DNA of 52,634 bases, filler included, from Porpidia crustulata (Eukaryota), in NCBI GenBank assembly GCA_964255105.1. It is 2 parts of 2 records of this genome, joined end to end, with 100 filler letters (N's around TTAATTAATTAA, not from the genome) between each part and the next. Parts side by side here need not be neighbours in the genome. Positions count along the whole stretch, not along the records: positions 1 to 26,389 come from CAXUWE010000037.1; 1 more part is not named here. One strand, given 5' to 3'. The position numbers and the translations under genes are program-made. The notes below the pieces were generated by a model that was given only the letters and a program-made list of their open reading frames with translations, searched no databases and was not told where the DNA came from. Shown piece by piece: positions 1 through 26,489 of the stretch (the first letter of the stretch is position 1; the number at the start of each line of letters is the position of its first letter).

Positions 1-1485
1 TACTCAGGAGCTGGGGGTTTCTTTTCTATACTTTGTCTTCTCCAATCACCCTCCGTGTGATCGCCAATACCAAACATATCCATTTTCACTATTGGCATGT
101 CTGCGCTTCTCCTCGGAAAACGCGATCCGGTACCATCGGCTTCGCGAATGTATATATCTGTTGTCATGCGAATATCGCTCAAACCCCAGCCATTCTGGTT
201 CCAAGTCTGTTCCGTTCTTGCGGCATCAATCATGGCCTGCTTTTTCGCCATGTGGAAAGATGATGTCCTTCTAGGTCGCGCAGGTGGTTTATCACATGCG
301 GCGAACCAGCCTCTGACGCTACAAGGATTTCGCCGTAATCGGGTGTACCAAGGAGGGGATGAATCAGGAAAGTGTGACGAAGGAAGAGCGAGGCTCGTAA
401 GAGGTTCTTCACCAGAGAGGCCTCGGAGGTGGCGTATGAAAGGTTTCATGTGTGGAGTGCAGGCAGCAATAATACCGATGTTAACTTCGGCTATTCTCCA
501 AAGGTAATTAGGGACGGCGACCCCTACAAAAATGTGAGTTCCCAAAATCTGGTTCAGTATCAAAGCCTCCTAGTTTTGACATACAGGTAATATCCTGATC
601 CTTAAGCTGCCACGAAAGCGAAGTCCTAGCAATACAAGTAGCCGCAGTGCTGGTTCCCAGAACGTTATTAGCTACCATGTTAGATAGTTGCCCGAAGCTG
701 GTAATACTCACATTACTCCTAGCCCCATGAGACAGCAAAGTGAGACTTTGGTTCGAGCGCTGATCTGCACATGCCAGACGATGACCACTGGCAAGGCGGC
801 AAGGATGAAATCGGTGATTATTGAGAAAACTACAAACGCTAATGAGTGGATTATCGCGATTATTTAATGTAGGAATACTTGCCCCCTTGAGATATAATGA
901 TATCCACCACTCTATTTCTCGTATAACAATCCCCGGAAGCATTTGTATCCCAATACTTATGCGCAGGTCTGCATTGGACTAAAATCAGAACGATAAAGGG
1001 CACATGTGTGATGACCAGGAATCCAATTAGCCCATAAAGGGCAGTCCGTAGTCCAGTCTTCTTAAATGTGGATAGTCGGAGGAGGAATAGGCAGATGGAG
1101 ACTTTGCTCAGTGGAAGTATTATAAAGAGCTGAGCCCAGTGAAGGTAGTCCATCCTGAGGTATGATCTGAACCCTTCCGAAGACACGTAGAACCTATGGT
1201 GCCCGAAACCGTGGTAAGTTTCTGTCACCGTGAATCCAACTCCCGTAGCATTAATTGCCTGTGAGAACGTCAGTACTACTCCGGCACCATTTAAGCATTC
1301 TTCCCTACCTGAGTCAAGACCATTGTAGCATCATCCCATCCGAAATTCCGGGTTATGTACAGACGAGTTGTCATCCTCAGAAAGACTATTATGGTCGACA
1401 AACCAAAGAACAGCGACAAAACCGCAATAACCACTGGACCGCGGTTCTGGTCTCCTCCTGGAAAAGGCATGTCCACCCCCTCCAT
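1..1485 (-). CDS. PTH11-like / fungal rhodopsin-domain integral membrane protein without CFEM; 5 exons (1485-1309, 1258-883, 829-712, 649-585, 523-<1); stop codon probably straddles the window edge
   Basis: Spliced translation gives family-typical motifs: LRMTTRLYITRNFGWDDATM, HGFGHH, LSKVSICLFLLRL, QCRPAHKYWD, FSIITDFILAALPVVIVWHVQISARTKVSLCCLMGLG, WRIAEVNIGIIAACTPHMKP. Introns are 50-62 nt with AG acceptors; one has a GC donor. Confidence 0.9.
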
Positions 1486-3899
1486 CGTTTTTATTTTGAA
1501 AGAGGAGTATCTGCTTAGAAGTGGATTGCGGCAGCGTGCCCCAAGTTAAAGACAAGGTGGGGAAGACAGCATGAGTAAGAGGATTAACGACTAGGTGGGT
1601 GTTTCAGGTTGGCCATTTGACAGAAGCAGTGTTCTGCAAGCACGGCAGGTATAGGTGTTTGGCGCACATGGAGCGGGGAACACCCAGAAGACGATCTCCC
1701 TGGAGCAGTCTCATCTGGCGGTACCTGGGAGGATTGCTGGACTCCGACTGCGACTACAAGCATGGGCCTGCCATGGTCTGCCATGGTTTGCATGTAGTGT
1801 GAGTGCAAGTTTATGGGCAGGCCGAATGACAGCGCAAGGGTTGATCCGACAGACAGATCAGAATATAGTGTGGTGGTAAGAGTAACGAGAATGCCGGGCT
1901 CAAGGTGGAGGAGCAAGGCTGATATTCCGCAGGTGGGATGTGCTCTAGCCTGAGAGTGACAAATGGCGTACAATGGCCAGACGCGCTTATGGCTTCCCGT
2001 CCCGCTCTAGCGGCTTGCGAGCAAATCAGGTCTTACAAAATCCAATTGACTGTTAGTGACCTCTCTTGTAGCCTCTTACGCCTCTGGACGATCTGCTCAT
2101 AGCACCCGGTTACGCTAATAAGACAGTCTACGAGAAACGCAAGTGCGGAACAGGATCTCGGAGTTTCCAGAATAGGCGGAAGAGACAGCTACACCGATTC
2201 TTCCAGCATGGATGAGACCGCACAAGACACGGGCGAGCAACAATGCAAGAAGTACGGAGCAAGTGGACCGTTGTTACATGATTCACGAACCTTATCAGAT
2301 TACCCAAACGATGGCGCTGTAGGGAAAAAGCTGCGAGGTTGACACGGTAAATGAAGAAGCAGTCTGGTGCTAGCCTACAGCGCATTACTGGCCGTGTGAG
2401 ATGTGCGGCAACGGGTACCAATTTTAGAGGCACGTGGTAAGTTCCTGAATATGGCTGGCGTCGCATTCAGAGATCGTGCCACAGCAAGTCTTTTGACAAT
2501 CGCGAACTTGGGCATTGGTAGTGAGAGCTCTCACTATCACAACGTAGCGCCGACAGACGGCACCAAGGGATTTGGGCGACCTCGACAACTGGACTCGCCT
2601 CATAACGCTTTCTCCGGCTTGATCTGGGTTAACACACAACTTACACATGATTTGGCAGTCATCCTAGTTTTGCACCCACACGGGGCGGCCGAGCAATTAG
2701 TTGTGTGGATCTGCGCACGTAAGCGAGGCAGGATATCTAAAAGGCCCCCATAAACTATGCAGTGGCCCCGCGATTCGGATCCACCAAGATGCACGCCAGG
2801 TCATGCTTGGCTAAGGCTTGTCGTCGGATTCATCCAAGGGTGATTTGCAGGTCAGGTTACGACGTCTCGTCAAAAAGGACAATCTCGATCGCCATTCGTA
2901 CCTCAATGCCCTAATGCGCGGGACTGTTTCATAGTCTTCCTTGGTTCTTCTGTCTGCCTTTTGCTATTTTTGTATGCTCATCCAAATTTTCATCAAGTGT
3001 CCGAGAAATGTAGAGTACGATAGATTCGAGAAATCGACTTAATTCATCTCCAGCGCTTCAAGCTACAGATCTTGTTACCTTACTTACTTTGCTGTTACGT
3101 TTACCGTTCATGGTACTTTGTGATATATACACTTGGGATCTGAGTCGATGATGTCACGTTGTGAAGAAGTTTCCTTTTGCTCAATGTATCATTATTATAG
3201 ACTGAGAATTTAACTGCGTAATAGACTTCTTACTGCAAATAACTAGGATCAACAAACTATACCGAAGAAGACTGCTTCTGGTATTAAATACTTCAGTCCA
3301 TCACAAATTAATGATTTGTCTTTCTATTCTGACTTTTCAACATAGACTGTCTCTTGATATTCTTCAGTTTCAATGTCGAAGAATTGTCTCCGAACTCGTT
3401 CACAGAACCGTTAAAGCAGACCTCACCATATACTCGAAGACTCAGTCTTCTTAAGGATTCGATTGACGCATAAACAGCGTTCTTTCGTTCCGTAATCTTA
3501 TCGAAATAACAGATGACACATTTCCTTTTCGTCTGACTTTCAATCTTCTATCGTTCCACATCTCGGCCGATTGGTATGGGATGCGTGTAGGGAATTTTGG
3601 GTTGGTTGACGAAGTTGAAGCAGTCCTTTTAACGCCGACGACGCTTTCCTCCTTATTATCCCACAAACTCCTTATACCACACGAATGAAATCTTTTGAAA
3701 GGTAAGTCTAAGCCCGATCGAGACAAACATATGCATCTCTGCCAGAATGCTATTTGCGACAGGCGCTCCATGTCAACCGTCAATTGATGCGATCTGACGT
3801 AAACCTTACAGTCACCGCATGGAGAAACCAGCACCTTCTGAGACACTAGCAGCTACGACTCCTACAGTTGAAATCGGCTTCGAAGCGCAGAAGTTGGAT

Positions 3900-5135
3900 C
3901 GATATGGTCATATTTGGTATTTGGATAACTTCTTCGTGTTTTGATTTAGTGTAATCGACACTGCTCGGTCCTTATTTGAAAACTCACCAGTTATATACAT
4001 GGCAAATACACCATTTAGGATCTCTTTTCATCCAATCTTGCTCACGACCTGCCTGTACCTTCAATCCAGCGATGGAACTTCAGTGCTCTTAGTGACATCT
4101 TAGCCGTACTCCTATTAAGTTGTCATATCACCTATAATCATCCATGCATCCCGCTTCTTATCATCGAAAATTTTCTCACCGCGATAGCGAACGACATCAT
4201 CTTCTTATCATAAAGATTGGTGTTTTTCTCGTGTAGTTCTCAGAGTCTCATGTTATGCGATACTATATCATATCAGACAATGACCCAGTGTCGAGCAAAG
4301 GTGGACGACGAAGTGCACCATTCCGAGCAATTCTCATACCGAGTCCTTTCATCCACAACCCAAACCCTTCCTATCATATATATCGCTACCGAATCTTTCC
4401 CACCTCGCAGACTAATCCACGAATAACGTTGACGATGAGGCCGCGGCAGATAGTACCGACATGAACTAATTCGATGCAAGCTTGATCCTACCAAGCTATT
4501 CGGACAAAAAGGTCAAGGGATTTCCAGATTAATAAATTTCGCAATTGCTATGAAGCGACAGGCCTACAAAGCAGCAAACCCGCTTTTGCATTCTTAACCA
4601 AGAATCTGGAATTTATCAAGGTGGAAGTCGAGTTTAGAGGTTCTTCTCATCTTCCTGGGAGCTTTTCTGCAGCAGTACATTCTTTCCGTACTGGCCGGGC
4701 TTGTTGTCCGTCGCGATGATAGTCGATATCCGTTAATTGTTACATCAGTCCTCGAATCCCATCTTTGGCTGTTCCAAGACAATCCGTCTCGGAACTTTGA
4801 GTTAAGCATTTAAAAATCCAAGCACATCCACAGACTGGTAGTTGCCATATGATGTTACTATACCACCCGGCGATCGCGATCTTCAGTTTATGATTCTGAT
4901 CGATGATATATGTTATTGTTTGCATCTGAGAAACAACGCCGTCGATGTTAGAATTCTCAGATGGATCCTGCTTCAGAAATGTGCGTCGTTGCATAACGAA
5001 TCCGCGTTGCACGAGACTCGGATCAGTCGTAGAAATGATGAGTTCGATAATAAACACATCCATAGTGAAGCAGTAGAATTGACAATTGTCGCTATGTTCT
5101 GGACTCACGCGAAGAACTAAGTTTTCGATTGTCAT
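3900..5135 (-). pseudogene. Degenerate gene remnant of unknown function
   Basis: ATG at 5135 in a CAACATG context opens a 131-codon frame. Downstream frames read protein-like with interspersed stops (e.g. EDDVVRYRGEKIFDDKKRDAWMIIGDMTT**EYG*DVTK near 4200-4090). Confidence 0.35.
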
Positions 5136-5659
5136 GTTGATTGACGTGGTTTGTTTTTAATGCGAGAAATCAATCGACGAATGAAAAAGTATAATGACGA
5201 TGTAGTACATTACGAGCCCCCGGACATGCTTTAGGGCACGGTTTAAGGGTGATGAAAGGGATGCTATTCTAAGTGCGAAGCTATGAAGCTATCCATGCCC
5301 AGGAATATGTCTGAGCAAGCAAGCGCATGTGCCCAGAAGTAGGCCCGATGGACAGGCAAGTTCATCCATCCAGAAGTAGATCCGAGCATCCACAGCCATG
5401 GAGCGTAATAGACAAAGACGTACAGGTGAGAACCAACGATGAAATCATGCTTGAGAAAGATATATAAGAAGTGTACGATAGATCAGATGCTTAGCTAAAG
5501 ATAACATCGCGATAAATCATGCTGCCGCGATCTGTTGAAAGCAACTTACTGCTATTTGTTATTAAGAACCACTCACGTCAACAACGTGTTTTGCTCATCG
5601 AGAAATACTCATTGCGGAATTACCAGAATACAGAAAATAATTATAACGTACATCATGCT

Positions 5660-7992
5660 CTAGCTTTTCGAGTCATCTTGTTCTGGACTTTCCAGTCCCG
5701 GAAAAGGTTCCCCAGAAGTTAAAACTTGGGACAGTCACTGTAGATAACCAGATGGTTCTAATAGTGAGATCTGGATCGGTGTAAAACTGACTGGCAAGGT
5801 CCGAAAAAAGTTCGATCGGCTTGGAATATAGATAATTATGTATCGTGTGAGATAATCTGTTCTAGAAGTCCTTCAGCAACGTCAACTTCTTCTAAGCATT
5901 AATAACCGCTTCGATGAAATATCCAACCCGATGTCTTTTATTAGCCATCGTCTCATCCGTAGCCAAATCATACATCTTGGGCAATGCAACATCTAATTGC
6001 GTCGTCTATTCTATCTTACTTCAGTGATAATGACTGATAATAAATCTTGAAAGAGGAGGAAATACTACTCACACCAATCAGGCATTCAAGCAAGTTGTTT
6101 TGGTATAGCTATGAGGGGATCCAGAATTCTATTGATTTAACTAACTAGAAGGTGAAGTCTAAGTGGAAGGCAGGTGGTTAAGTAATGTTTTGGCCTAGCT
6201 TCTTTGAGTCATTGCATTAACAGTTCGTCATCATCGTCCACCCCGTTGCTTCCCTTTCTCCCTCTCAAGAAGTATCTAGGATCAAGGCTAGCTAAGTCAG
6301 TCAAGTTCTCTGGAAAGACTTCAAGTGCCTCATTTTGCTCGTTGTAGAGGGCGTAAAGCTTGGCTTTAACAGGCGTGATGTGAGGGTTGACTACTCTGGC
6401 AGCTTGGTTTCTGCTTTTAAATTATCACAGCAGATTCGAGTGCATTGTAAGAATCACAAGACGCTCAGGCGTCAAAACAGAGTACCATTCCGTAGCGCTG
6501 ATCAATTCCTTGCAATGGCACGTGTGATTCATTGTTGAACGCATCGAACCCCAGCTAGATAAACGAAGAGAAAGCATCCGAACAATAAGATCTTTAAATC
6601 TGATTGTTAAGTCGGCTCTGGTTTTTTTCAAGGCCTTGGAGTCTTTAAACTCGTCATGAAAGTTTTTCATCTTGATGTCTTGTGATAGAATATAGTGTTC
6701 GACTCGAAATTCAACATCTCTGAAGCATCTCAATCAGATTGTGTCGATGTCGAGAATATTGTTCTCTCGGTATATCGGAAACACTTCTATACGAATAGCA
6801 GGATTGATGTCCGTACATCCTCGTCTGCTTGAAAGTTTTCGCAAGAACGGGACTTCATATTATTTGTTCACGTTTGAGATAGGTTATATGATTGAAGAGT
6901 ATCTAAGAAAGAAGAGTAAGAACATTCGCGAGAACGCCGCCATTTTCTTGCGACTTATTCGTGCAACTTTACCTCGCTTGACGAAAGCAACAGCGATATA
7001 GACAGCATAGAACTAAAGGTTCTCGAATATAGAGTTAGATCTTTACATATAGCAGCTGCGTATTTCCGGATAATTTGGTTTTGTGTCGGCCCTGCGGACT
7101 GCTGAGATGAGTTGATAGATACAAGACGAGAAATAACATAATCGCTGGGTTTGATGAGTAAAGGACAGAAGCCGAGATTCTTTTGGCAATGTATGAGCAG
7201 GGCCGCACGCTCCATAGAGCAGACTTCGTCTACTATTTCCTTGACTCGAGAAAGATGTATGAGGGCATGGATCATCCGCTCGGCCAACAGTATCGAGTAG
7301 TTGGTGGGATCCAACTCCACGGGATAGAGGGCGAAAGAATGGGACTGAAGAGAATCCTTCCCTTTCCAAGCTCATCCAAAACCGTTGCTTTCGGCAACGT
7401 TGTTTGTTCCGAAGACCCAACCCTCTTGCAAAGAAGCACTTCCCCCTCGCTCAATCAGCTGTCTCAGCGGCAACCATTCCGCCAGCCCAAGCGCCCCGTG
7501 GAGTTGGACCCCGCCAATTACTCGATACTGTTGGCCGAGCGGGCCCTCCACAATCGATGGCCGGCCTAATGGAATGCGGTCGGCAATTACGTACCCCTTT
7601 GCGGTAAAGTCATGGTAGTATAATTGTCCCCTTTCTTTGCCCGTAAGGCCACTATGCCACATGTGGCCTACCCAACAATCCGTCAATCTGAAGCCTATTG
7701 ACGGAGATGTTTTCTCAAAGGATTGTATCGACAAAACATCAAGTTTCAATGACGGTTTATCGTCAAAGATCGCTGAAATCGCCTGCTTTGGAAGGCTCTT
7801 GAGGAGATAAAGTCGCGCAGTATCAGACAATTTGAAATGCTTTGCTCCTGTGGTGATTGTACGAGATTTGGATCTAGTCGTACGGGACTTGGACCTGATT
7901 AGGGGTCCTGAATCTGACGCATTGCTTTCTGACAATTCCGAGGCGTAGTCAGCGATTTTCGCAGCGAAATCGATTTCTGTGAGGTCGTTCAA
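5660..7992 (-). pseudogene. Degenerate gene remnant; ORFs 7372-7992 and 6955-7320 form one frame interrupted by a single TGA, with further fragments down to ~5660
   Basis: The two ORFs are in the same frame (about 345 codons, one stop at 7372-7374: ...NGFG*AWKGKDSLQSHSFALYPVELDP...). Additional protein-like fragments occur at 6425-6733 and ~5700-6000. Confidence 0.5.
7276..7542. repeat. 48-bp inverted repeat (arms 7276-7323 and 7495-7542, 45/48 identical, 171-bp spacer)
   Basis: ccgctcggccaacagtatcgagtaGttggTgggAtccaactccacggg versus the reverse complement of arm 2, ccgctcggccaacagtatcgagtaAttggCgggGtccaactccacggg. All three differences are transitions. Confidence 0.95.
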
Positions 7993-8424
7993 TCTCTGTT
8001 CGGTTACTTAACGTACTCGGCCATCGATCTTCGTATTTTTGTCGCCGTTCCCTTGGCGATATTTGTTTCCTTGACCGAGTGTAGATTCCCCCAGATCGTC
8101 TATCAGATCTAGCGCTCCTTGTGCTATACATGCTACAGCGGGAAGCAGTCTTGGTGTGTATGGTAGAACTCATGCTCCTCATGAGAGTCTTCACGAGTAG
8201 TATATCACGGGAGCCTTTTCTCACGGTAACGAAAATTTTGATTGTGCAAGAGTAAATGAGTTGTTTGAAGAAGTGACGAGTCCGCTTTGAACGTGGAAGA
8301 TTGAAGCAAGAGCCACCCGCTTTTGCATCTCCTCGTCGATATTCTTTCATCGATAGGTGTTTGGCTTGAAATCTCGACAGTCATCTCGAACTTGATATAC
8401 TATTTGATTCAAGGATCATTGACA

Positions 8425-11030
8425 TCAACAGTGGAAGTGTTGGCCCTTTACGCTAGCCGAAGTAGTCTTCAAGAAACATAGTAAAATTTCCACCGACTTG
8501 GCCGGATCATTGAACTGCGCACACGCCGCCGTTCTCTCTTCCCGCGTGTGGACTGGTTGGATTTTCATCACTTTGAAACCAATATCGATCAGGAAGTTAA
8601 TGATTGAGATTGTTAATGAAATGTCCAATAAACTTTCAGTTTAAAGACGTCAACGCTGTCGTTTAGCCCATGCTACAAGCATAATATTGTTCGTCAAGAA
8701 CAACGAGCGACATAATTATAAGAATTTTATTGTTTCAAATGAGAATAGGACGATGTTATGCACGAAGTAGAAAGCGAAGTGACAGAAGTGTAGAAAATTA
8801 TTTCTAATGATGGGAGTCGAGTCTTGTCCGCAACACACGTCTAGGTAGCATTGATTCGCCAGGCTGAATATCAAGCTAATCAACGAACGCCGAAGGGCTT
8901 GCGTGTAGCCACGCTAGATCGTATTGGCTATCCATTGTCGTTACATCTTCTTACTAGGATGGACGGTGAAGCTTCGCAGTGCTTTTACGTCTCTTTTGTA
9001 AATGTCGAAATGGAGCCACAGCTCTATGCCGTCTCGATAGAATGCTCGTGTCCTACAGGTGGCAATGTGATAAAGATAAGCGTCCACGACTCTTGTGCAT
9101 CTCACCTACATGTAACGGGAGAGGTTCCCTTGAAATTTTGCTCTTGGTATTGAACACCAAACAACTTCTTATTGATGCTGTATTATCTCTTGTCTTGTAG
9201 GCAACCAATCCTGGCCAATTTTGAAAAGGATCCTAGGAGGTGACCCAGTTCCCATAAGCGTCCATTACCGGAGCAGAGGGTCCAGCGTGATATACCGGCT
9301 CCAACGTGGAGGCCGCCTCAGCATAGTAGGCCAGCACTTGCGGGGGGGCTGTTGCTGGAAATTGGATCCCCACTGCTGTGGTAGGATCAGGTAATCGATA
9401 TCATGAACTGAATGATTCTGCGCAAGGAGATTGTAATTCTATATAACTTATAATGCTCAGAAAAGCTTCATAAGAGAAATCTAACCACAAACGAGACAGA
9501 TCATTTCATCCAGAATCCAATATTTCCGCGACACTCTTCCTAAATCAAGCGTCAACGCAAAGTATTGCAAAGCAAGAAGCAGCATTCTGCTTCTTTCCAC
9601 AGTCTATGACGAGCTTCTCCACTAGAGTTGCGATATCGTGCGATTGATATCTTGAAAAGAACGTGTTTGTATTATTGTCGAAATCGCTTCCACGAGTTAG
9701 AGAAAACAATAGAGTAGACCTTACTTAATGTGAACGTGACTCGGCAGCAAAGTCGGCGGATTGCAACTAAAAGCTTTGAATATAGTAGATTTTTGTTTAG
9801 TGCTCCAGATATATGGTTTGTGAAAATGCTTCCTGTTTTCGATATCTTATTAGTAAAGAACTTATGATACTTGTGAAGGATGGAATCGCCGGGATTATGT
9901 CTTTCAGAAGCGTAGGTATTCCTCGGAACAAAATTTATAAGCATATAATATTTCTATATCGTATCCATTAAATTGCTCTGCCATAGACCTCTTCATTGTG
10001 CTTGTATTTCTGCCGAATAATCTCGTGTCACTAATCATTTCGTTAAGATCGCGAACTGTCCCGTCATCGATTTTGCATCTGTAATCACTGCTTCAAATTC
10101 CATATTCGGTCCACGGTATAAACTATGCCTCTGCCAAGTCCTTGGTGGTGTGCATCTCTTTTCCAGGTACTAAGAGCCCTTATTTCGAAGATTTGCAGGT
10201 GACCGTCATGTAACTGTTGTTTCCAGTTGCGATAAGCTGTAGTCCGACTATAAAACCAATCTAGAGTGCTTCTAAAAGCTCACCGGTCGAATGGTCCCTC
10301 CCCCGTGTCCTCGTCCTGCCCAACCCCTGTGAGCTTCCCCGCGAATCCCCGGTGAATCTTACGGTTTACAGGCGCCTGATGCTTACTCATGGTCAACTCA
10401 ACCGTGGTGACCTGATAGAGCGGGATTTCTGCGCCAATCTTGCACTTGTCTCGCCTCACCATGATGGAGTCCGACATGGTCCTTCGAAGCTGAATGAGCC
10501 GCAGAATCGGCGGAATTATCATCTGACAGCGTGATTGTCCATGTGCTTTTCCCCTGCAGGATTGACAAATTTGCGGAAAGTTTTGAAGTTTAGAGCATGA
10601 ATGACGCCCTCAAAGTTGCCCGCAACATTCTTTGATCCAGGATCGCGGTGACGCTTTGGTAGTCGCCCAAGTCCATGTATGGATGTAAGTCCCCCCATTC
10701 TTCCTGTTTCCAGAGTAAAGTCAGAAGTCCATCCAAATCCAATGGTCTATTCATCATGGGTGTGGCCGTCATGAGGATTAGGGTTAGGGTTAAATGTAGG
10801 GATTTTGTTTATCCAGAAGGCAGTTAATGTGATGGTTTCAATAGTTAACAGCAGGGGCGTAGATCCACTCGATTCGAGTTCCAGTCCTATCCATTTGTTG
10901 ACATGTTTTCCGAAAAGGACCATCAGATTACTCGAGGCTGACGATCTTCCACCAGGAGGAACAAAGCTATCTGATTGATGGATATGGAAAGTCCTAGACC
11001 AAAGCGTCCTTAACCCACAGGCTTTCTCGG
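8425..11030 (-). pseudogene. SNF2-family (SF2) helicase/ATPase pseudogene, fragmented
   Basis: Motif III-like LILMTATPMMNRPLDLDGLLTLLW (~10790-10710), SNF2 LRR block IIPPILRLIQLRRTMSD...IPLYQVTTVELTM (10522-10280), and HelicC-like FLIDIGFKVMKIQPVHTREERTAACAQFNDPAKSVEILL (8628-8425). Frames are broken by stops and frameshifts; no intact Walker A or DExx motif was found. Confidence 0.7.
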
Positions 11031-14000
11031 GATTTTTTGCGTCACATATTCAATAATCTTCCAGCAACGGGGCGTCCGGTAGTAGTCTGATTCGTAGGAG
11101 AAAAGAAGATGTATCATAAAGTGATCGTGTTTAAAAACTGAGAATCGCACGACGACGATGAAGCTCGACTTCATTAAGGAAATAGCCTTCGTCTTTGGAG
11201 TCATACATTTCGTTAGCCCAACCGGCGGTTCAGGATCACAATTGTAGTGTCGCTTGTCTCATACTCTAGACTGATCTCATATCTGGGGATTATCGCCGAA
11301 CTCTTCATCCCAACCCAGTCCCTGAGCATCTCTTTACGTTGACTGATATTGAAACTCGGCTGACAACGCCAAATACGGCGGGCTCGGATCCAGTATTACG
11401 GTCAAGACTTGACAGAGTTCTTTAAGTTCCGGGTACTGAATCCTCCTGTTGAGATTGCTTTCGTGGTGAGGGGGAAAGAACGTTTTAATCTTGTTGCTAA
11501 CGGATTTTCCGATGAGCTCTTCAATCATGTTAAACGGCATTTCGAGCAGATTGCAACACCGCGCAGCAACCTTTGCAGCCTTGAAGAGTAATTTCTGCAT
11601 TTTACTTCGGCATTGGCGAAGAATCTAAGTCTCATCAACCCCCCTTAAGCATTTGTGACTAAGAATTAGTCCATGTTTTTTCTATATTATTAAACTTATA
11701 ATGAATTGGGAACGAAATGAGTAGTTCTGGTCCAGCTTTAACTCTCCCTCTAGTACTCCTTAGATAAAGTTGAAGTAGTTCGCAGTAAATCTTCCAGAAC
11801 CTCATGGTAGTCTTATAAAGATCCGACACTGCTTGAAACTGTCCCACATTCTCCGAAAAGAATGGCGTCTGTAGCTGCGTTGATAATGGAGCCGTCTAAG
11901 TATGAAAATCTTATCTAAGAAAGACACGAGGGTCTTCGTATCCCGAACACATCCTATCTGAAAGTCTTTGCTGAGATAGTTTTGATCATTGATAACCGCT
12001 CATCGATTCTCAGCAATGGGTATGTTCTACTTAATTATATCGACGACGTACGGCTTTTGCTGTCGTTAACCCTTCATAGTATCAAGATCGTTTCTGAAAT
12101 AAGGAAGAAGATGTTTGGACTTGTGTCAACGGACAGGCGTATTGTGGCGATGAGAACGACATGTCGAGAATTGTAGACGTCCGAATGTCAATAAACACAT
12201 TGTAATCTTTCTGAGAATGCTTTATCTTTTGTTCGAAGCCCATGATTGAGCCATAAAGGTGTTGCAGTACCGGATCTGGTCTTTACTGTATTAAGTCGCT
12301 TTTAAAGCCAAGATTTTAATATCTTTTCATTATTGAACACTGAGATCTCGTAGCATTTTCAAGATCGCGAACTTTGAGACGTCTTGATAGAATATTGAAA
12401 CGTGCGCATCAATTTAAAGCCACAAGACGAGAACGTAAATGTAATCCACATCGGAATGCGTGAACTACCAAGTCAATGCTGACTAGACTGTCTTCTGCAG
12501 CGTTTGAGGAAGTTTTGATATTCGCTGATTGACATGGACTAGGTGCTGGGGGAAAAAGAAGTTAATCAAGTTGCTGGACATAGAGCATAATAATGGAGCT
12601 GGACACCATGTCTACAGTTGGATACCTGAACTAGTGATTGATATTTAAGGCACGATGAGCGTTTCTTATGTGGCTGGGTAAGTGCAAAACTATTGCGGAA
12701 TATTCGGCATATTAGTCAAAGTACTCAGGTTTACTATCCTGAGAGATATCCTCTACTGCTGTATGGTAGGACAAGGGTGAGCTCGATCGGGCTCGTTGGT
12801 CGTCATCTCCAATACCTGTGAGAGCAGATCTGATGAACACCAGAATAGTGCCAACTTGCTTTCACCATAGATTCCTCGCTGGCAATACCGGCAGAGCAGA
12901 CGTTTGTGTTTTCTCTGGTTTAGTCTTTCGTCTCCGCGGCTTCCATTTTTATTTCTTCGTGCGTCAGTCAGAACTTTTATGATTCTATTATCAAGTCTTT
13001 TGTAATATTTTAATGAGTCATTGAACGACTAGATAGTATTTCGAATAGCATATCACTCGAACCCCTCGAAGAGACATTTGACATCCTTGACTTTGTTCAA
13101 ATTAACAAGCCGAATGTCACTGAACGTCGCTGAAACCTTTTGCTTTCGACGTCAGCACGAAGACCCTTATATACCGTATTGACTTCGGCTTCGTGATCGT
13201 CGTGAACAGTTTTTAGTATTATCCGTTCTTGATATGCAGCGAAATTACAATCTTGACAAGTCGTGTCAGACGGTCTTAGAGACAAAATGGAGACAGCCGA
13301 CGTGGCAGGATTTTGTGATATGTGTTCAATTCTTTGCAGATATCTTCGGTATAGCCTGAGGAATCAACTTTCCTAAAGCTGACCAAGGTGCGTATAGAAT
13401 GAATGTCGAGATTTGTGGTATTTAGCTAACGAGTAGTATCAAGTATTTTACACCAAGCCGGAGAATTACTCGACGTCGCGTTCGTCAATTCTATAGTATT
13501 GAGATCCTATCACTTTGTTGAATGAAGTCTGGCGTTGACTCCTGTGCGTAAGATGACCCGTTTGAAGCCCATAAAGGTCTGGATTCTTGATAATGTAAAG
13601 CCGATAAGTTATTGCCAGCTGCCGCAACCATGAAAAACAGGCCGCAGAGAACTTAGTGGTCTCTCACTTTCAAAGGCCGAAAGAATTCGTTGAGCTGGCT
13701 CGACGTTCTCCCGCGGTCAAGAGGAAAACGAAGATCTTACCAGATATTGACCGGATAGTGTTCTCACAGGAAAGAGGGGTCTGGTGAAAGAAAGTTATGT
13801 CAAACATGATATCGGCTTCAAACCGGACCCACAACTTGGCGTGCGATCAAAAGTAGAGAAGATAAACGAAGCCGAATGTGATTATTCCGCACAAGTATGT
13901 TGAGAGACGAATATAATCCTTCTCCATTGATTCGCAAGTAATACGAAGAGATACTTTCATTCTAAGTCCTCGACTCTTTATCGTCTGATTTGCGTTGATT

Positions 14001-14519
14001 CGAAGTAGCACGTCTATGTCACCTTTCGATAATGAATCGAATTCAGTCGATTCTTTCAAGCATCCCATTCGTGTGCTTGCACTGTCTGTCAGTTATATAT
14101 AATCGATTAGTGACCTTCGACCATTTACGGGCCGATTGGCCTTATTTCGAATCGAAGCGCATTGACGATCTTTCGACAGTGAGGCGAGTTGTAAAGTTTG
14201 AAATACTGAAGACAATCCTTGCTGTGTGCTGATTTGGGGACGACAGACAGAGTCATAGTCCTTGGATCGAACGTGCTGCTATATATGAAGGATTCTCGTC
14301 TTTTGCGAGCTAATGCTGTCGCATGTCGTTCATTTGCTTATTTCTGTGGCTGGTTTATATTACTGCTGAACAGTGCTACACTGTTATCGTGTGCTGCTGT
14401 TAATGAGCCACTGTCGTCCTTTGCGTGCTAATGCCGCTTCATGTCACTCGTTCAGAGGCGTAGCGCTCCTTTAGCCAACCCGATAAGGTAGTCTGGATCC
14501 TCTTCGCATTGCACGTACT

Positions 14520-16221: not shown

Positions 16222-18326
16222 TCACCTATTCCACAGTAGCCAGGTATACCAAAGTAATACAACGCTTGCCACTTGATAAAAACTCATTTTGAAAGCCTGG
16301 AAAAAGATCCATATGCGTCCTCGTCTTCTTTTCGTTCGGTCATCAGGCACAATGTCATTCGAGTTCTTCTTGCGTGCGTTCCCATCTCGAAACACGTCGT
16401 ACTTATCCTCGCTCAATGGATTCGATTGTGGCAGTGGAAGCCCATATCCAACGGAAGGACTCACGCTCCTCGTTCGCGCAGCGGATGACCTTGCCGCGAG
16501 GCCATTGTGAGAAGAAGGATCGGGAGATCGAGCAGATGCAGACCTCATCTCGTGTGGTGGTGGCGATGCTATTGGTCGTACAACAGGCAATAGGGGCGTA
16601 TCAGGTTCTTTCGAGTCGTACTTTGAGCTATACGTTAGTCTAAGAGCGCGGACAAAAAGCACGAGTCCCGTGAATCCTAAGAAGAGACCATATCGTATGA
16701 ATATGGAGAGTTGATCCGGTAATAGGCAGAGGTGGCTCTGGAGCGTTTTCCCCTTTGCTGAGCCCCCAATCCGATTACCCTCTGCGTCCAGTGGATTCCA
16801 CAGGCTTACCATCAGGAATCCTGGTTTTCGAACACCCATAGCCCAGGACATGGACTTCACAGTGATCTCCCGAATACCTCCATTCCTTGAACTAAAACCT
16901 CGATGAACAACTTCACAATAGTCATGATCATCGCCGGAGAAGACATGTTCTATATCTCCGATTTTATCAACAAGCTCGTTGGAAACAGAAGGAGTTAGAA
17001 CATTCTGGTACTGGATTCCAGCTTCTACCCTAATTGCATTTCTATCGTCCTTTTCTAATGGTTCGTACGGCGCTTTGTCGGACTTTGTAGGTGGATATCG
17101 CTCCCGCAATAGTCCACAAGGTGTTCCAGAACTCCTATAAAGCGGCACATGCGTCAGGAGAATAGATGGTATGTCTGTGCTTGAAGCCACATTGCCTATT
17201 TTCTTTGCCTGACGTAGGACAGGGTCGTCAATCTCGAGAACAGTATGGTCTAGCTCTTCGTTCATGTTCTTGCCGGCTTGCACTCGCAATTCTCGAATGA
17301 TTGCGCGCGCCTTCTCAGCTTTGGCCTGAGAGAGGAAGTCCTCAGCAGGCCCCCAGATCTGTCTAGTCAATTCATTCCCGTCAGTCGATCCCATCTGGCC
17401 GGTAGTTGGATCTGCTTGACCCTTGGCGCTGAGTGACACGGTATCCACAGAAACGACGCTGTGATTTCCAATAATATCGACGCGGTTTCCGCCTCCAAAA
17501 TATGCGTTGAATCTTTTCCTGACTGGCAGCCGGATTCCAGTTCCCAGCCCAAGATCGTGGTTTCCTGGAAGGGTAACTATCATCTTTCGAGCTGTCTTCC
17601 CTTGCCTTTTTACCCGAGTACCATGTATCCATGATTTGAAGAAAATGCGGCCAAAACGATCGTATTCTCTCAGCCAGAAATTATCCCCATAATTTTTCCA
17701 TTGCCTATCTGATATATCACCGCCGCGAGTAGCCCATTCCCGTCCACCATCGAATAAGTCACCGAGAAATATAGTTGTATCAGGATCTAGGATGTCCTGG
17801 ACGAATTGGAAAGACTTTCGAAGGTACAGGTCAGTGTACTTGACGGTCGCTGTAGACAAAGGCCATGGTCGGCTCGGGTAGGTGTGAGGATCTACAAGTT
17901 GAGGGTCGGCGAGAAGGACCACATGGTGTGGATTTGCGTCGGGGGGCTGCCAGCTATATTAACAAGGACTATCACAGCGCACAGTGACTCTGCGGGGCCT
18001 ACCCAGCTTTCCCAATTTGGCCATGCGCAGGCCTTCACGCTACCTGTGAATGCCGCTTCCTCGCCCCACCATAGTAAGAACATCCACAGTATGACAAGTC
18101 CGAGTCTAACATCCAAGAATGATCGCAAATCCCATGCCTTTCGTGCCGAATGCGACCGTCCATTCTTTGCGCCTTGTGGGAAAGCTCCACTAGATCGAGC
18201 TTGTTGGTTAGGAACGTATTTGCCAAATGCCGGCGGTAGCCCCTCGAAAATTTGGTCGCCTAGACTCTCTGATTTATGCGAATGACTGAGCGAGGGTTGG
18301 GAGCCATGGCGAAAGAACGAGGTCAT
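16222..18326 (-). CDS. CDC1: Cdc1/PGAP5-like calcineurin-type metallophosphoesterase (GPI-anchor remodelling); exons 18326-18003 and 17946-16222
   Basis: Motifs LADPQLVDPHTYP, FLGDLFDGGREW, LPGNHDLG, LLTHVPLYR, FSGDDHDYC and EITVKSMSWAMG; N-terminal TM helix followed by the C-x-W-x-x-W-E-x-W motif; GT-AG intron restores the frame. Confidence 0.95.
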
Positions 18327-26389: not shown

Positions 26390-26489
26390 NNNNNNNNNNN
26401 NNNNNNNNNNNNNNNNNNNNNNNNNNNNNNNNNTTAATTAATTAANNNNNNNNNNNNNNNNNNNNNNNNNNNNNNNNNNNNNNNNNNNN
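26390..26489. other. Artificial assembly spacer: 44 N + TTAATTAATTAA (stops in all six frames) + 44 N
   Basis: Exactly 100 nt and symmetric, with the six-frame stop linker used when joining contigs. Confidence 0.97.

Follow-up and report, generated by a model that had tools for sequence, protein, structure and literature searches.

In the 52,634-nucleotide stretch of Porpidia crustulata DNA analysed here (the window), a gene-poor island of ~11 kb (positions 2950 to 14410) is probably non-genic or decayed sequence that has been incompletely struck by a lineage-specific C-to-T hypermutation favouring CpC>TpC, seen as GG>GA when the opposite strand is read. This preference is shown for the lineage, where it can be followed directly in alignments of the nearest relatives, and is supported in the present genome by composition. 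The island is marked by a patchy loss of GG, a weaker loss of CC, and a gain of GA and TC.

The most tangible sign is a set of ten GG-free tracts of at least 150 bp on the + strand. Shuffles that preserve composition, run 500 times each in blocks of 100 bp, of 300 bp or of the whole island, produced on average 1.5, 1.4 and 1.0 such tracts, respectively, and not one of the 500 reached ten in any of the three designs; mononucleotide composition, named beforehand as a possible explanation, thus yields 1.0-1.5 tracts and not ten. A first-order Markov model set to the dinucleotide frequencies of the island predicts 2.8 (ten being reached in 0/500 simulations), and because the excess goes beyond that model the GG depletion is patchy. 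Inside the island lie the longest, second and third longest GG-free tracts anywhere in the 52.6-kb window: 9427 to 9743 (317 bp), 13839 to 14129 (291 bp) and 12939 to 13187 (249 bp). In the longest, 54 G's within 315 bp would predict ~9 GG and none is seen; the inferred changes would have hit the minus-strand C of CpC. Further tracts occupy 5426 to 5616 (191 bp), 9926-10108, 3281-3455, 12279-12453 and 2944-3112. CC-free tracts of at least 100 bp number 17, against 10.4, 9.2 and 8.3 in the shuffles (p 0.008, 0.006 and 0), and those of at least 150 bp number four, against 1.4-1.6 (p 0.04-0.06). The longest of these (6635 to 6811, 177 bp, + strand) overlaps a GG-free tract at 6639-6769, both dinucleotides being missing in the overlap; others on the same strand are found at 8669 to 8828 (160 bp), 5061-5217, 6329-6485 and 14261-14408. 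The same shuffle test revealed no tract excess in the remaining 38 kb of the window, in keeping with the earlier impression that the flanking housekeeping genes have no obvious tracts of this kind.

The preliminary description of this DNA had singled out four tracts without GG, four without CC, one without either and a patch rich in both, and all of them survive counting: the first four contain 0 GG and 5-10 CC each, the second four 0 CC and 2-10 GG each, the segment at 6641-6768 has neither, and the patch at 9210-9400 holds 22 GG and 18 CC in 191 bp. The sharp edges that it reported were also recovered, with borders at 2944 and 9426/9427. It had claimed depletion of both dinucleotides; here the picture is less symmetrical, as the loss of GG on the + strand dominates and CC is just 6% low overall (z -1.6).

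Of the 16 dinucleotides, none is more strongly depleted in an island-specific way than GG (417 observed against 541 expected, 23% low, z -7.0, with ~541 also obtained in the shuffle test), GA is 26% high (857 against 678, z +9.3), TC is 22% high (883 against 726, z +7.4), and CC stands at 499 against 531. The persistence of CA, TG and CG noticed earlier, alongside the enrichment of TC and GA, is borne out by observed/expected ratios of 1.02, 1.06 and 1.06, the CG ratio being 0.90 outside the island. TA and AC are low throughout the window. RIP is the textbook genome defence of fungi, and it is detected by CpA>TpA indices and by a fall in G+C. The TpA/ApT ratio is ~0.75 both within and outside the island (0.56-0.82 per kb within it), and the substrate index, (CpA+TpG)/(ApC+GpT), ranges from 0.98 to 1.37 per kb in the island; a TpA/ApT of 0.75 together with low GG and high GA and TC means that this is not classical RIP. 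An index better suited to the signature, (CC+GG)/(TC+GA) calculated per window, has a median of 0.50 in 44 island windows versus 0.75 in the 159 windows beyond it (Mann-Whitney p 1e-11), and falls below 0.5 in 19 of the former versus 4 of the latter. Three patches appear to have been spared: 7001 to 7750, with normal CC and GG (index 0.79-1.30), which matches the position of the conserved portion of P0003; 9001 to 9400, rich in GG and CC, by the sharp edge at 9426/9427; and 10001 to 10900 (index 0.82-0.95). In tracts oriented so as to be CC-free, the TC ratio reaches 1.46 versus 1.11 for CT, indicating that the 5' C of the CC pair is the one lost. In the same tracts C falls 250 below G, yet T does not exceed A (1572 versus 1580), so that the tracts must in part reflect the selection of C-poor stretches and not C>T conversion.

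Searches for coding content in the island gave little. No Pfam family was found in its six whole read-through frames, where no reverse transcriptase or integrase remnant was detected either, and there was no tRNA or Rfam match. Transposon protein remnants were sought in 76 ORFs of at least 60 amino acids and in the six read-through frames, and no family rose above noise. A motif-like string had suggested an SNF2-helicase pseudogene at ~10590-11100 on the minus strand; this candidate was dropped when Pfam returned nothing at E values up to 1 and the read-through frame, searched by words against proteins, was equally without a match. P0003, a predicted protein of 206 amino acids encoded on the minus strand (7372 to 7992), carries a conserved domain, DFTxKGY...VQLHGxEG, which has no Pfam family and is common to ten weak homologues. 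An exhaustive search with the 350-amino-acid read-through of 6958-8007 returned 11 proteins, namely the window's own and the ten weak, unnamed ones; a "longer" search with this query found no relatives, nor did a metagenome scan with P0003. Past the P0003 stop, the frame remains open for 138 further codons (6958 to 7371, minus strand) and, as the homologues span 119-409 amino acids, a formerly longer reading frame is possible. The TGA at 7372-7374, previously read as a mutated TGG, lies on the minus strand and is the type of stop that the proposed process yields, but it is also P0003's own stop; a TGG>TGA origin is possible.

In the contigs of one sequencing run, no second copy of the island turned up at 80% identity or above. 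Internal duplication was looked for by self-BLAST, by a purine/pyrimidine-recoded self-comparison (with five shuffled controls) and by TRF, and nothing emerged from these except a 48-nt inverted repeat, 94% complementary, with its left arm at 7276 to 7323 and its right arm, part of the P0003 coding sequence, at 7495 to 7542. A scrap at 11319 to 11415 (97 bp) recurs on a different contig of that run, with 15 differences and 3 gaps, and similar scraps are located at 12742-12842 and 13220-13255. These three paralogous scraps (36-100 bp, ~230 bp in total) show 9 transitions among 11 differences, distributed as CpC 1, CpG 4, CpT 3 and CpA 1. As the island has no alignable copy, the evidence in this genome is compositional.

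Direct evidence comes from the relatives. A metallophosphoesterase gene flanking the island (16222 to 17958, minus strand) served as anchor for retrieving a syntenic, orthologous locus from the relatives (L001-L011), which are 74% identical in amino acids and 71% in nucleotides and belong to a different species or genus; homology to the window ends at ~15614. The relatives are lichen-fungus-like, and the window's fungus is probably lichen-forming. Within their locus lies a strain-variable block of 1.6 kb, whose core (columns 120-1700 of a three-strain alignment) contains 101 transitions versus 4 transversions. In this core 73 of 126 CpC sites are changed (58%), compared with 6/178 for CpA, 9/177 for CpG and 13/206 for CpT, that is, 3-6% outside CpC. 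All four NCC contexts are struck at rates of 0.50-0.66, with no preference at the +2 base. The flank (columns 1700-3000) has 21 transitions versus 6 transversions and a CpC rate of 10/186 (0.05), the flanks of the block differing by ~1-2% between the same strains; pairwise comparison of control genes gives 37 transitions versus 22 transversions, 9 of them at CpC. Of 108 transitions, 83 have a C as their 3' neighbour and 18 have one on the 5' side. Mutations are arranged in strand runs, 67 falling into 16 runs (as few in 0 of 20000 shuffles) and 22 into 4 runs (p 0.006), and both polarities occur inside 1.5 kb of one lineage. The mutated haplotype is common to three assemblies, and a search across all 36 strain pairs for additional recently affected blocks passed this one alone, in 6 bins. 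At the protein level the replacements are of the kind to be expected (E>K 10, P>S 7, G>E 4 and W>stop 2). CpC>TpC preference and strand-wise processivity, both proposed from the island's sequence, are therefore borne out by alignment in the nearest relatives, while the island itself retains a weaker, compositional signature of them.

The block is a gene-sized unit within an 8.5-kb insertion, present in some strains only, that also carries a Tc1/mariner transposase gene and a DUF7924 gene. This setting would suit the idea that duplication triggers the process, though it is no proof; the island itself is single copy and free of hidden duplication. Two other alignments in the relatives proved unsuitable as test cases. 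A 153-bp tandem array is too old and saturated, with CpC slightly ahead (14/16 columns versus 0.40-0.64 in other contexts, and 34 columns with transversions); in the alignment of L008 1-1378 with L001 827-1900, homology ends after the first ~250 bp (237 transitions versus 251 transversions). Part of the relatives' GG-free DNA is a 12-bp minisatellite and owes nothing to mutation. One relative also has a block of 17% G+C in which the cytosine contexts left are CpA (57) and CpT (27), with CpC and CpG both at 0, the inverse of classical RIP; its TpA/ApT is 0.72 and its substrate index 1.97.

The island's tracts could also be viewed as ordinary compositional heterogeneity, neutral non-coding DNA simply exposing genome-wide biases that coding constraint does not oppose, with the long tracts as the tail of a distribution. 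The rest of the window does lean the same way (GG z -5.2, GA +8.5, TC +10.3), the oriented tracts have no surplus of T over A, and the island has no aligned copy that displays the mutations. We nonetheless judge this explanation unlikely. The tract excess survives the Markov model built on the island's own dinucleotides; GG falls below a z of -2 in 10 of 113 island windows of 200 bp versus none of 101 in other stretches without a long ORF; and in the relatives the signature is seen arising by mutation. It is, moreover, restricted to this lineage: with a threshold set after the distribution was seen (index <0.30 at G+C of at least 0.35), low-index windows amount to 34/644 in the relatives and 2/104 on this contig, both in the island, versus 0/49 in L010, 0/103 on the window's other contig and 0/2968 in 69 other fungal loci. 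Three further fungi of this data set have AT-rich blocks of the classical type (TpA/ApT 1.09-1.54).

In retroviral cDNA, the base of CC that APOBEC3G deaminates is the 3' C. One could envision an APOBEC-like single-strand cytidine deaminase acting on DNA exposed during transcription, replication or retroelement cDNA synthesis, with no repeat-triggered RIP involved. A CC target struck in strand-coordinated runs, an island whose losses lie mostly on one strand, and an island that is single copy at 80% identity or above, with no hidden duplication, all suit such an enzyme. We find it improbable all the same: it is the 5' C of CC that changes, opposite to the APOBEC3G pattern, the island harbours no reverse transcriptase or integrase remnant, and editing of cDNA does not suit the relatives' block, which is allelic at a fixed chromosomal place and has both polarities inside 1.5 kb of a single lineage. 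Slow deamination of 5-methylcytosine, in which a CpC-preferring DNA methyltransferase would mark silenced DNA and methyl-C would become T over evolutionary time with no active mutagenic step, would give local, C>T-only changes following the methylase context, and RID and DIM-2 homologues are reported for the lichen fungus Cladonia rangiformis (PMC12542154), but it is very unlikely given a block with 58% of CpC changed between flanks that differ by so little, and changes in long single-strand runs, which look like bursts and not site-by-site decay.

In the relatives, the hypermutation aimed at CpC yields almost exclusively transitions, strikes a gene-sized block while sparing its flanks, follows a single strand across hundreds of bases and then changes over to the other, and alters over half of the CpC sites. 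Its saturation endpoint there is DNA of ~40% G+C devoid of CC and GG, with CpG and CpA intact and TC and GA in excess. The GG-free and CC-free tracts of the island may then represent domains where such events ran with opposite polarity, the minus strand being struck in most cases, and the spared patches sequence that was untargeted or is under selection. The agent might be a RIP-type machinery, built on a RID/DIM-2-like cytosine methyltransferase homologue with a shifted dinucleotide preference, and the trigger would be duplicated DNA. Whether a whole clade of probably lichen-forming ascomycetes possesses such a re-targeted RIP, invisible to standard screens and with CpC far ahead of CpT and CpG and with CpA last, the inverse of every described RIP, is a question on which we find the balance even.

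If this is true, a process with the hallmarks of RIP would escape both CpA>TpA indices and G+C screens: since CpA and CpG are spared and the process stalls near 40% G+C, standard indices would score such genomes as RIP-free or miss most of the affected DNA. Kingdom-wide surveys would then underestimate how widespread RIP-like defence is, and estimates of which fungi protect their genomes in this way would change. Fast-evolving, domain-less islands such as 2950-14410 would be explained, and the footprint on proteins would be Pro>Ser, Gly>Glu/Asp and Glu>Lys, with Trp>TGA as nearly the sole new stop. The enzyme would offer a natural specificity variant of the RID type for mapping the choice of target dinucleotide.

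The process resembles APOBEC3G action in its CC target and its strand-coordinated runs of G>A or C>T. It departs from it in the base that changes, the 5' C, both in the relatives and, to judge by the TC and CT ratios, in the island's tracts, a comparison made with the general APOBEC3G rule; and it mutates the chromosome in place, with both polarities in one block. Lichens live exposed to the sun, and ultraviolet light leaves a dipyrimidine signature in which CC pairs undergo C>T. The change is alike, but such damage should be genome-wide, whereas the relatives have one 1.6-kb block with 58% of CpC sites struck between flanks at ~5%.

RIP in Neurospora crassa and other Pezizomycotina depends on RID and DIM-2, targets duplications that exceed certain limits of length and identity, and acts before meiosis. 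The relatives' block shares with it the almost exclusive C>T and G>A changes at many sites at once (101 transitions versus 4 transversions, against 37 versus 22 in control genes), the single-strand runs, the sharp borders (CpC rates of 0.58 in the core versus 0.05 in the flank), and the stop codons and missense changes in the struck gene. It differs from the Neurospora type in preferring CpC and striking CpA least (0.58 versus 0.03), in a TpA/ApT of ~0.5-0.75, in a fall of G+C that halts at ~40%, and in the retention of CpG. The CpA>TpA hallmark is missing from the island (TpA/ApT 0.56-0.82) as it is from the relatives (CpA 6/178). We found no report of a CpC-dominant form of RIP in the literature searched. 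Passages of a survey that covered 1,239 fungal genomes in 2025 state that RIP-like defences share a preference for CpA, and CpC does not appear in them (PMC12543289); RIPCAL names CpC>TpC solely as one of four formal possibilities. Variants of context are described for Aspergillus nidulans MATE (CpG plus CpA), Microbotryum Ty1 (TpCpG) and Sclerotinia (CpA plus CpT) (PMC2621366, PMC5381539). CpC is the main target in none of these three; what they have in common with the process described here is that the dinucleotide preference of RIP-like processes varies by lineage.

Every GG-free or CC-free tract that the preliminary description had listed in the gene-poor island (2950-14410) matched its description on recount, and no GG-free tract elsewhere in the window is as long as the island's three longest. 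That composition alone accounts for this signal is unlikely: with bases shuffled inside blocks of 100 bp, 300 bp or the whole island (500 rounds per block size), 1.5, 1.4 and 1.0 GG-free tracts of at least 150 bp were expected, and none of the 500 shuffles (0/500) reached the 10 observed. CC-free tracts of at least 100 bp were also in excess (17 observed vs 10.4, 9.2 and 8.3 expected, p 0.008 or less); no tract excess over shuffles was found in the remaining 38 kb of the window. A first-order Markov model with the island's own dinucleotide frequencies predicted 2.8 of the longer GG-free tracts and likewise never reached 10 (0/500 simulations), so GG loss is patchy rather than a uniform bias. 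When all 16 dinucleotides were compared, the island-specific shifts were in GG (417 vs 541 expected, z -7.0), GA (857 vs 678, z +9.3) and TC (883 vs 726, z +7.4), an effect mainly on one strand, CC being depleted by just 6% (z -1.6); TA and AC are depleted across the whole window. Classical RIP, of the CpA>TpA type, does not fit a TpA/ApT ratio near 0.75 and a CpG O/E of 1.06, as had been suspected from the sequence. In tracts oriented to be CC-free, TC (O/E 1.46) exceeds CT (1.11), an indication that it is the 5' C of CC that was lost. These tracts hold 250 fewer C than G without a surplus of T over A (1572 vs 1580), so that the set partly reflects the selection of C-poor stretches.

Neither Pfam families (in 76 ORFs and six read-through frames) nor tRNA or Rfam matches nor tandem repeats were found in the island, and a candidate SNF2 pseudogene was not borne out. 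The one real gene inside it encodes P0003, a protein of 206 aa (7372-7992, minus strand), and is located in a patch with normal CC/GG content. Its small-family domain of about 100 aa (S.L...ER...DF..KGY...R.P.GR...Y....VQLHG.EG) is conserved and common to 10 weak homologues; it has no Pfam model and no name in any source. The stop flagged in the preliminary description is the TGA of this gene. Since 138 more in-frame codons are open beyond it and homologue lengths span 119-409 aa, the TGA could possibly derive from a former TGG. Internal duplication was not detected, purine/pyrimidine recoding included, except for one 48-nt inverted repeat (7276-7323 / 7495-7542, 94% complementary, arms 171 nt apart). 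One arm encodes PLGQQYRVIGGVQLHG, a conserved stretch of P0003, and the second falls shortly after the P0003 stop, in the open in-frame extension. Among contigs of the one sequencing run containing it, the island is single-copy at 80% identity or more. Scraps of it (11319-11415, 12742-12842 and 13220-13255) recur on other contigs of that run, with 9 transitions among 11 listed differences, 1 of the 9 being at CpC, numbers too few to weigh and not supportive.

The fungal genes of the window include those for the pentafunctional AROM protein, Sfi1, Rav1, Uso1, Xrn, a tyrosinase and an OPT transporter. The left contig measures 26,389 bp; the linker that follows (26390-26489) is artificial, with two 44-N runs around TTAATTAATTAA, a six-frame stop, and gene adjacency across it is therefore not real. 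In the left flank, a gene with a fungal rhodopsin domain (PF20684; ~700-1270, minus strand) spans two frames and so probably contains an intron; no counterpart was found in the relatives described below within 10 kb of the metallophosphoesterase gene that adjoins the island (16222-17958, minus strand). The best named relatives of this latter gene are from lichen-forming Lecanoromycetes (protein identity 56% in Letharia lupina, 55% in Lecanora helva, 50-52% in Xylographa, Lambiella and others); further matches reach 69-78%. The source of the window is therefore probably an ascomycete that forms lichens.

A metagenome scan with the metallophosphoesterase as query yielded 80 fungal loci, 10 of which (L001-L009 and L011) correspond to this locus in strains of a single relative, with 74% protein and ~71% DNA identity to the window. 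Synteny with the window holds on the side of the anchor gene that faces away from the island, and homology stops at ~15614. The relatives' island-side 10 kb (3' of the metallophosphoesterase; 11780-20400 in L001) contains no Pfam family and, between L001 and the other strains, shows 8-10% divergence with many indels vs 1-3% in genes, CpC changing at only ~1.6-2 times the rate of other contexts. The GG/CC-loss signature is much stronger in these loci than in the island: L008 1-3000 has O/E values of 0.37-0.48 for GG, 0.54-0.74 for CC, 1.52-1.59 for GA and 1.0-1.39 for CG, and at ~43% G+C its runs without GG or without CC reach 544-693 bp. Some strains carry an 8.5-kb insertion flanked by TA(TA) (L001 946-9446), missing from L003, L005 and the window, whose cargo comprises a DUF7924 ORF, an ankyrin-repeat gene and a Tc1/mariner DDE_3 transposase; as its two ends are not mutual inverted repeats, it is probably compound. 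A 153-bp tandem array (L003 17124-17956, with counterparts in L001, L004-L009 and L011) varies from 1 to 5.5 copies among strains, its units being 70-90% alike.

Mutations could be read directly in a strain-variable block aligned for L001, L008 and L009, after removal of the misaligned columns below 120 and of those whose trinucleotide contained a gap. The core (columns 120-1700) holds 101 transitions and 4 transversions, the former striking CpC at 73/126, CpA at 6/178, CpG at 9/177 and CpT at 13/206, so that the CpC preference proposed for the island stands for this lineage. In the flank (columns 1700-3000) there are 21 transitions and 6 transversions (CpC 10/186, CpA 4/167, CpG 2/152, CpT 5/153). 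The four NCC trinucleotides are struck at similar rates (0.50-0.66); no effect of the base following CC was found. Pairwise, L001 and L008 differ in the block by 108 transitions vs 8 transversions, with 83 changes at CpC, and in genes by 37 vs 22, with 9 at CpC. Action on one strand at a time, also proposed for the island, is likewise upheld in the lineage: the 67 changes of the L008/L009 branch fall into 16 single-strand runs (0/20000 shuffles gave as few) and the 22 of L001 into 4 (p 0.006), 12 transitions of other patterns being included in the context counts and excluded from the runs test. The mutated haplotype is common to L007, L008 and L009, which are separate assemblies, and the block is thus not an assembly artefact. 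We infer that the changes ran from C/G to T/A, the T/A-bearing haplotype being CC/GG-depleted relative to the genomic norm. The block is part of the 8.5-kb insertion and matches an ORF with DUF7924, and its amino-acid changes are of the kinds expected from CpC>TpC (E>K 10, P>S 7, G>E 4, G>D 2, W>stop 2).

The distribution of the signature was surveyed in 500-bp windows with a (CC+GG)/(TC+GA) index below 0.30 and G+C of at least 0.35, a cut-off that is the first percentile of 3868 windows and was set after the distribution was seen. Such windows number 34/644 in the ten relative loci, 5 of the 34 being a 12-bp minisatellite rather than mutation, and 2/104 in the island-bearing contig (at 3001 and 6501, both inside the island). 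There are none in the other contig of the window (0/103), in L010 (0/49) or in 69 loci of other fungi (0/2968). Dense 12-, 24- and 36-bp minisatellites with a G-poor strand occupy L009 1-1600 and imitate GG-free tracts without a mutation process. The data establish that the mutations are transitions only, in CpC context with the 5' C struck, in single-strand runs, local and restricted to the lineage. A 491-bp segment of 17% G+C (L001 20560-21050) is built of TTAATCAAT-like words; its remaining C/G contexts are CpA (57) and CpT (27), with CpC and CpG at 0, and its TpA/ApT of 0.72 and substrate index of 1.97 are the inverse of classical RIP. This suggests, on the basis of a single block, one machinery that prefers CpC, then CpT and CpG, then CpA.

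The island tracts are probably relics of CpC>TpC mutation events; the mutating agent may be a RID/DIM-2-type enzyme, with duplication as a possible trigger. Less likely rival accounts are composition alone, a single-strand deaminase as the agent and slow 5mC decay as the source of the changes. The preliminary interpretation as a whole is partly supported.

Classical, CpA-type signatures do occur in the AT-rich windows of three other fungi (L012, L013 and L016; ~52% identity to the anchor protein), where TpA/ApT is 1.09-1.54 and the substrate index 0.41-0.62; both kinds of signature thus occur among fungi of one metagenome collection. Our literature search, which covered main texts in part, found no report of a CpC-dominant form. 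The accessible text of a 2025 survey covering 1,239 genomes concludes that a preference for CpA is common to RIP-like defences, and "CpC" does not occur in it (PMC12543289). The portion consulted on Cladonia rangiformis describes strong, G+C-poor RIP with RID and DIM-2 homologues and contains no context analysis (PMC12542154), and that on Sclerotinia gives CpA and CpT contexts (PMC5381539). RIPCAL, in the sections available, lists CpA, CpG and CpT as dominant forms and treats CpC>TpC as no more than a formal possibility (PMC2621366).
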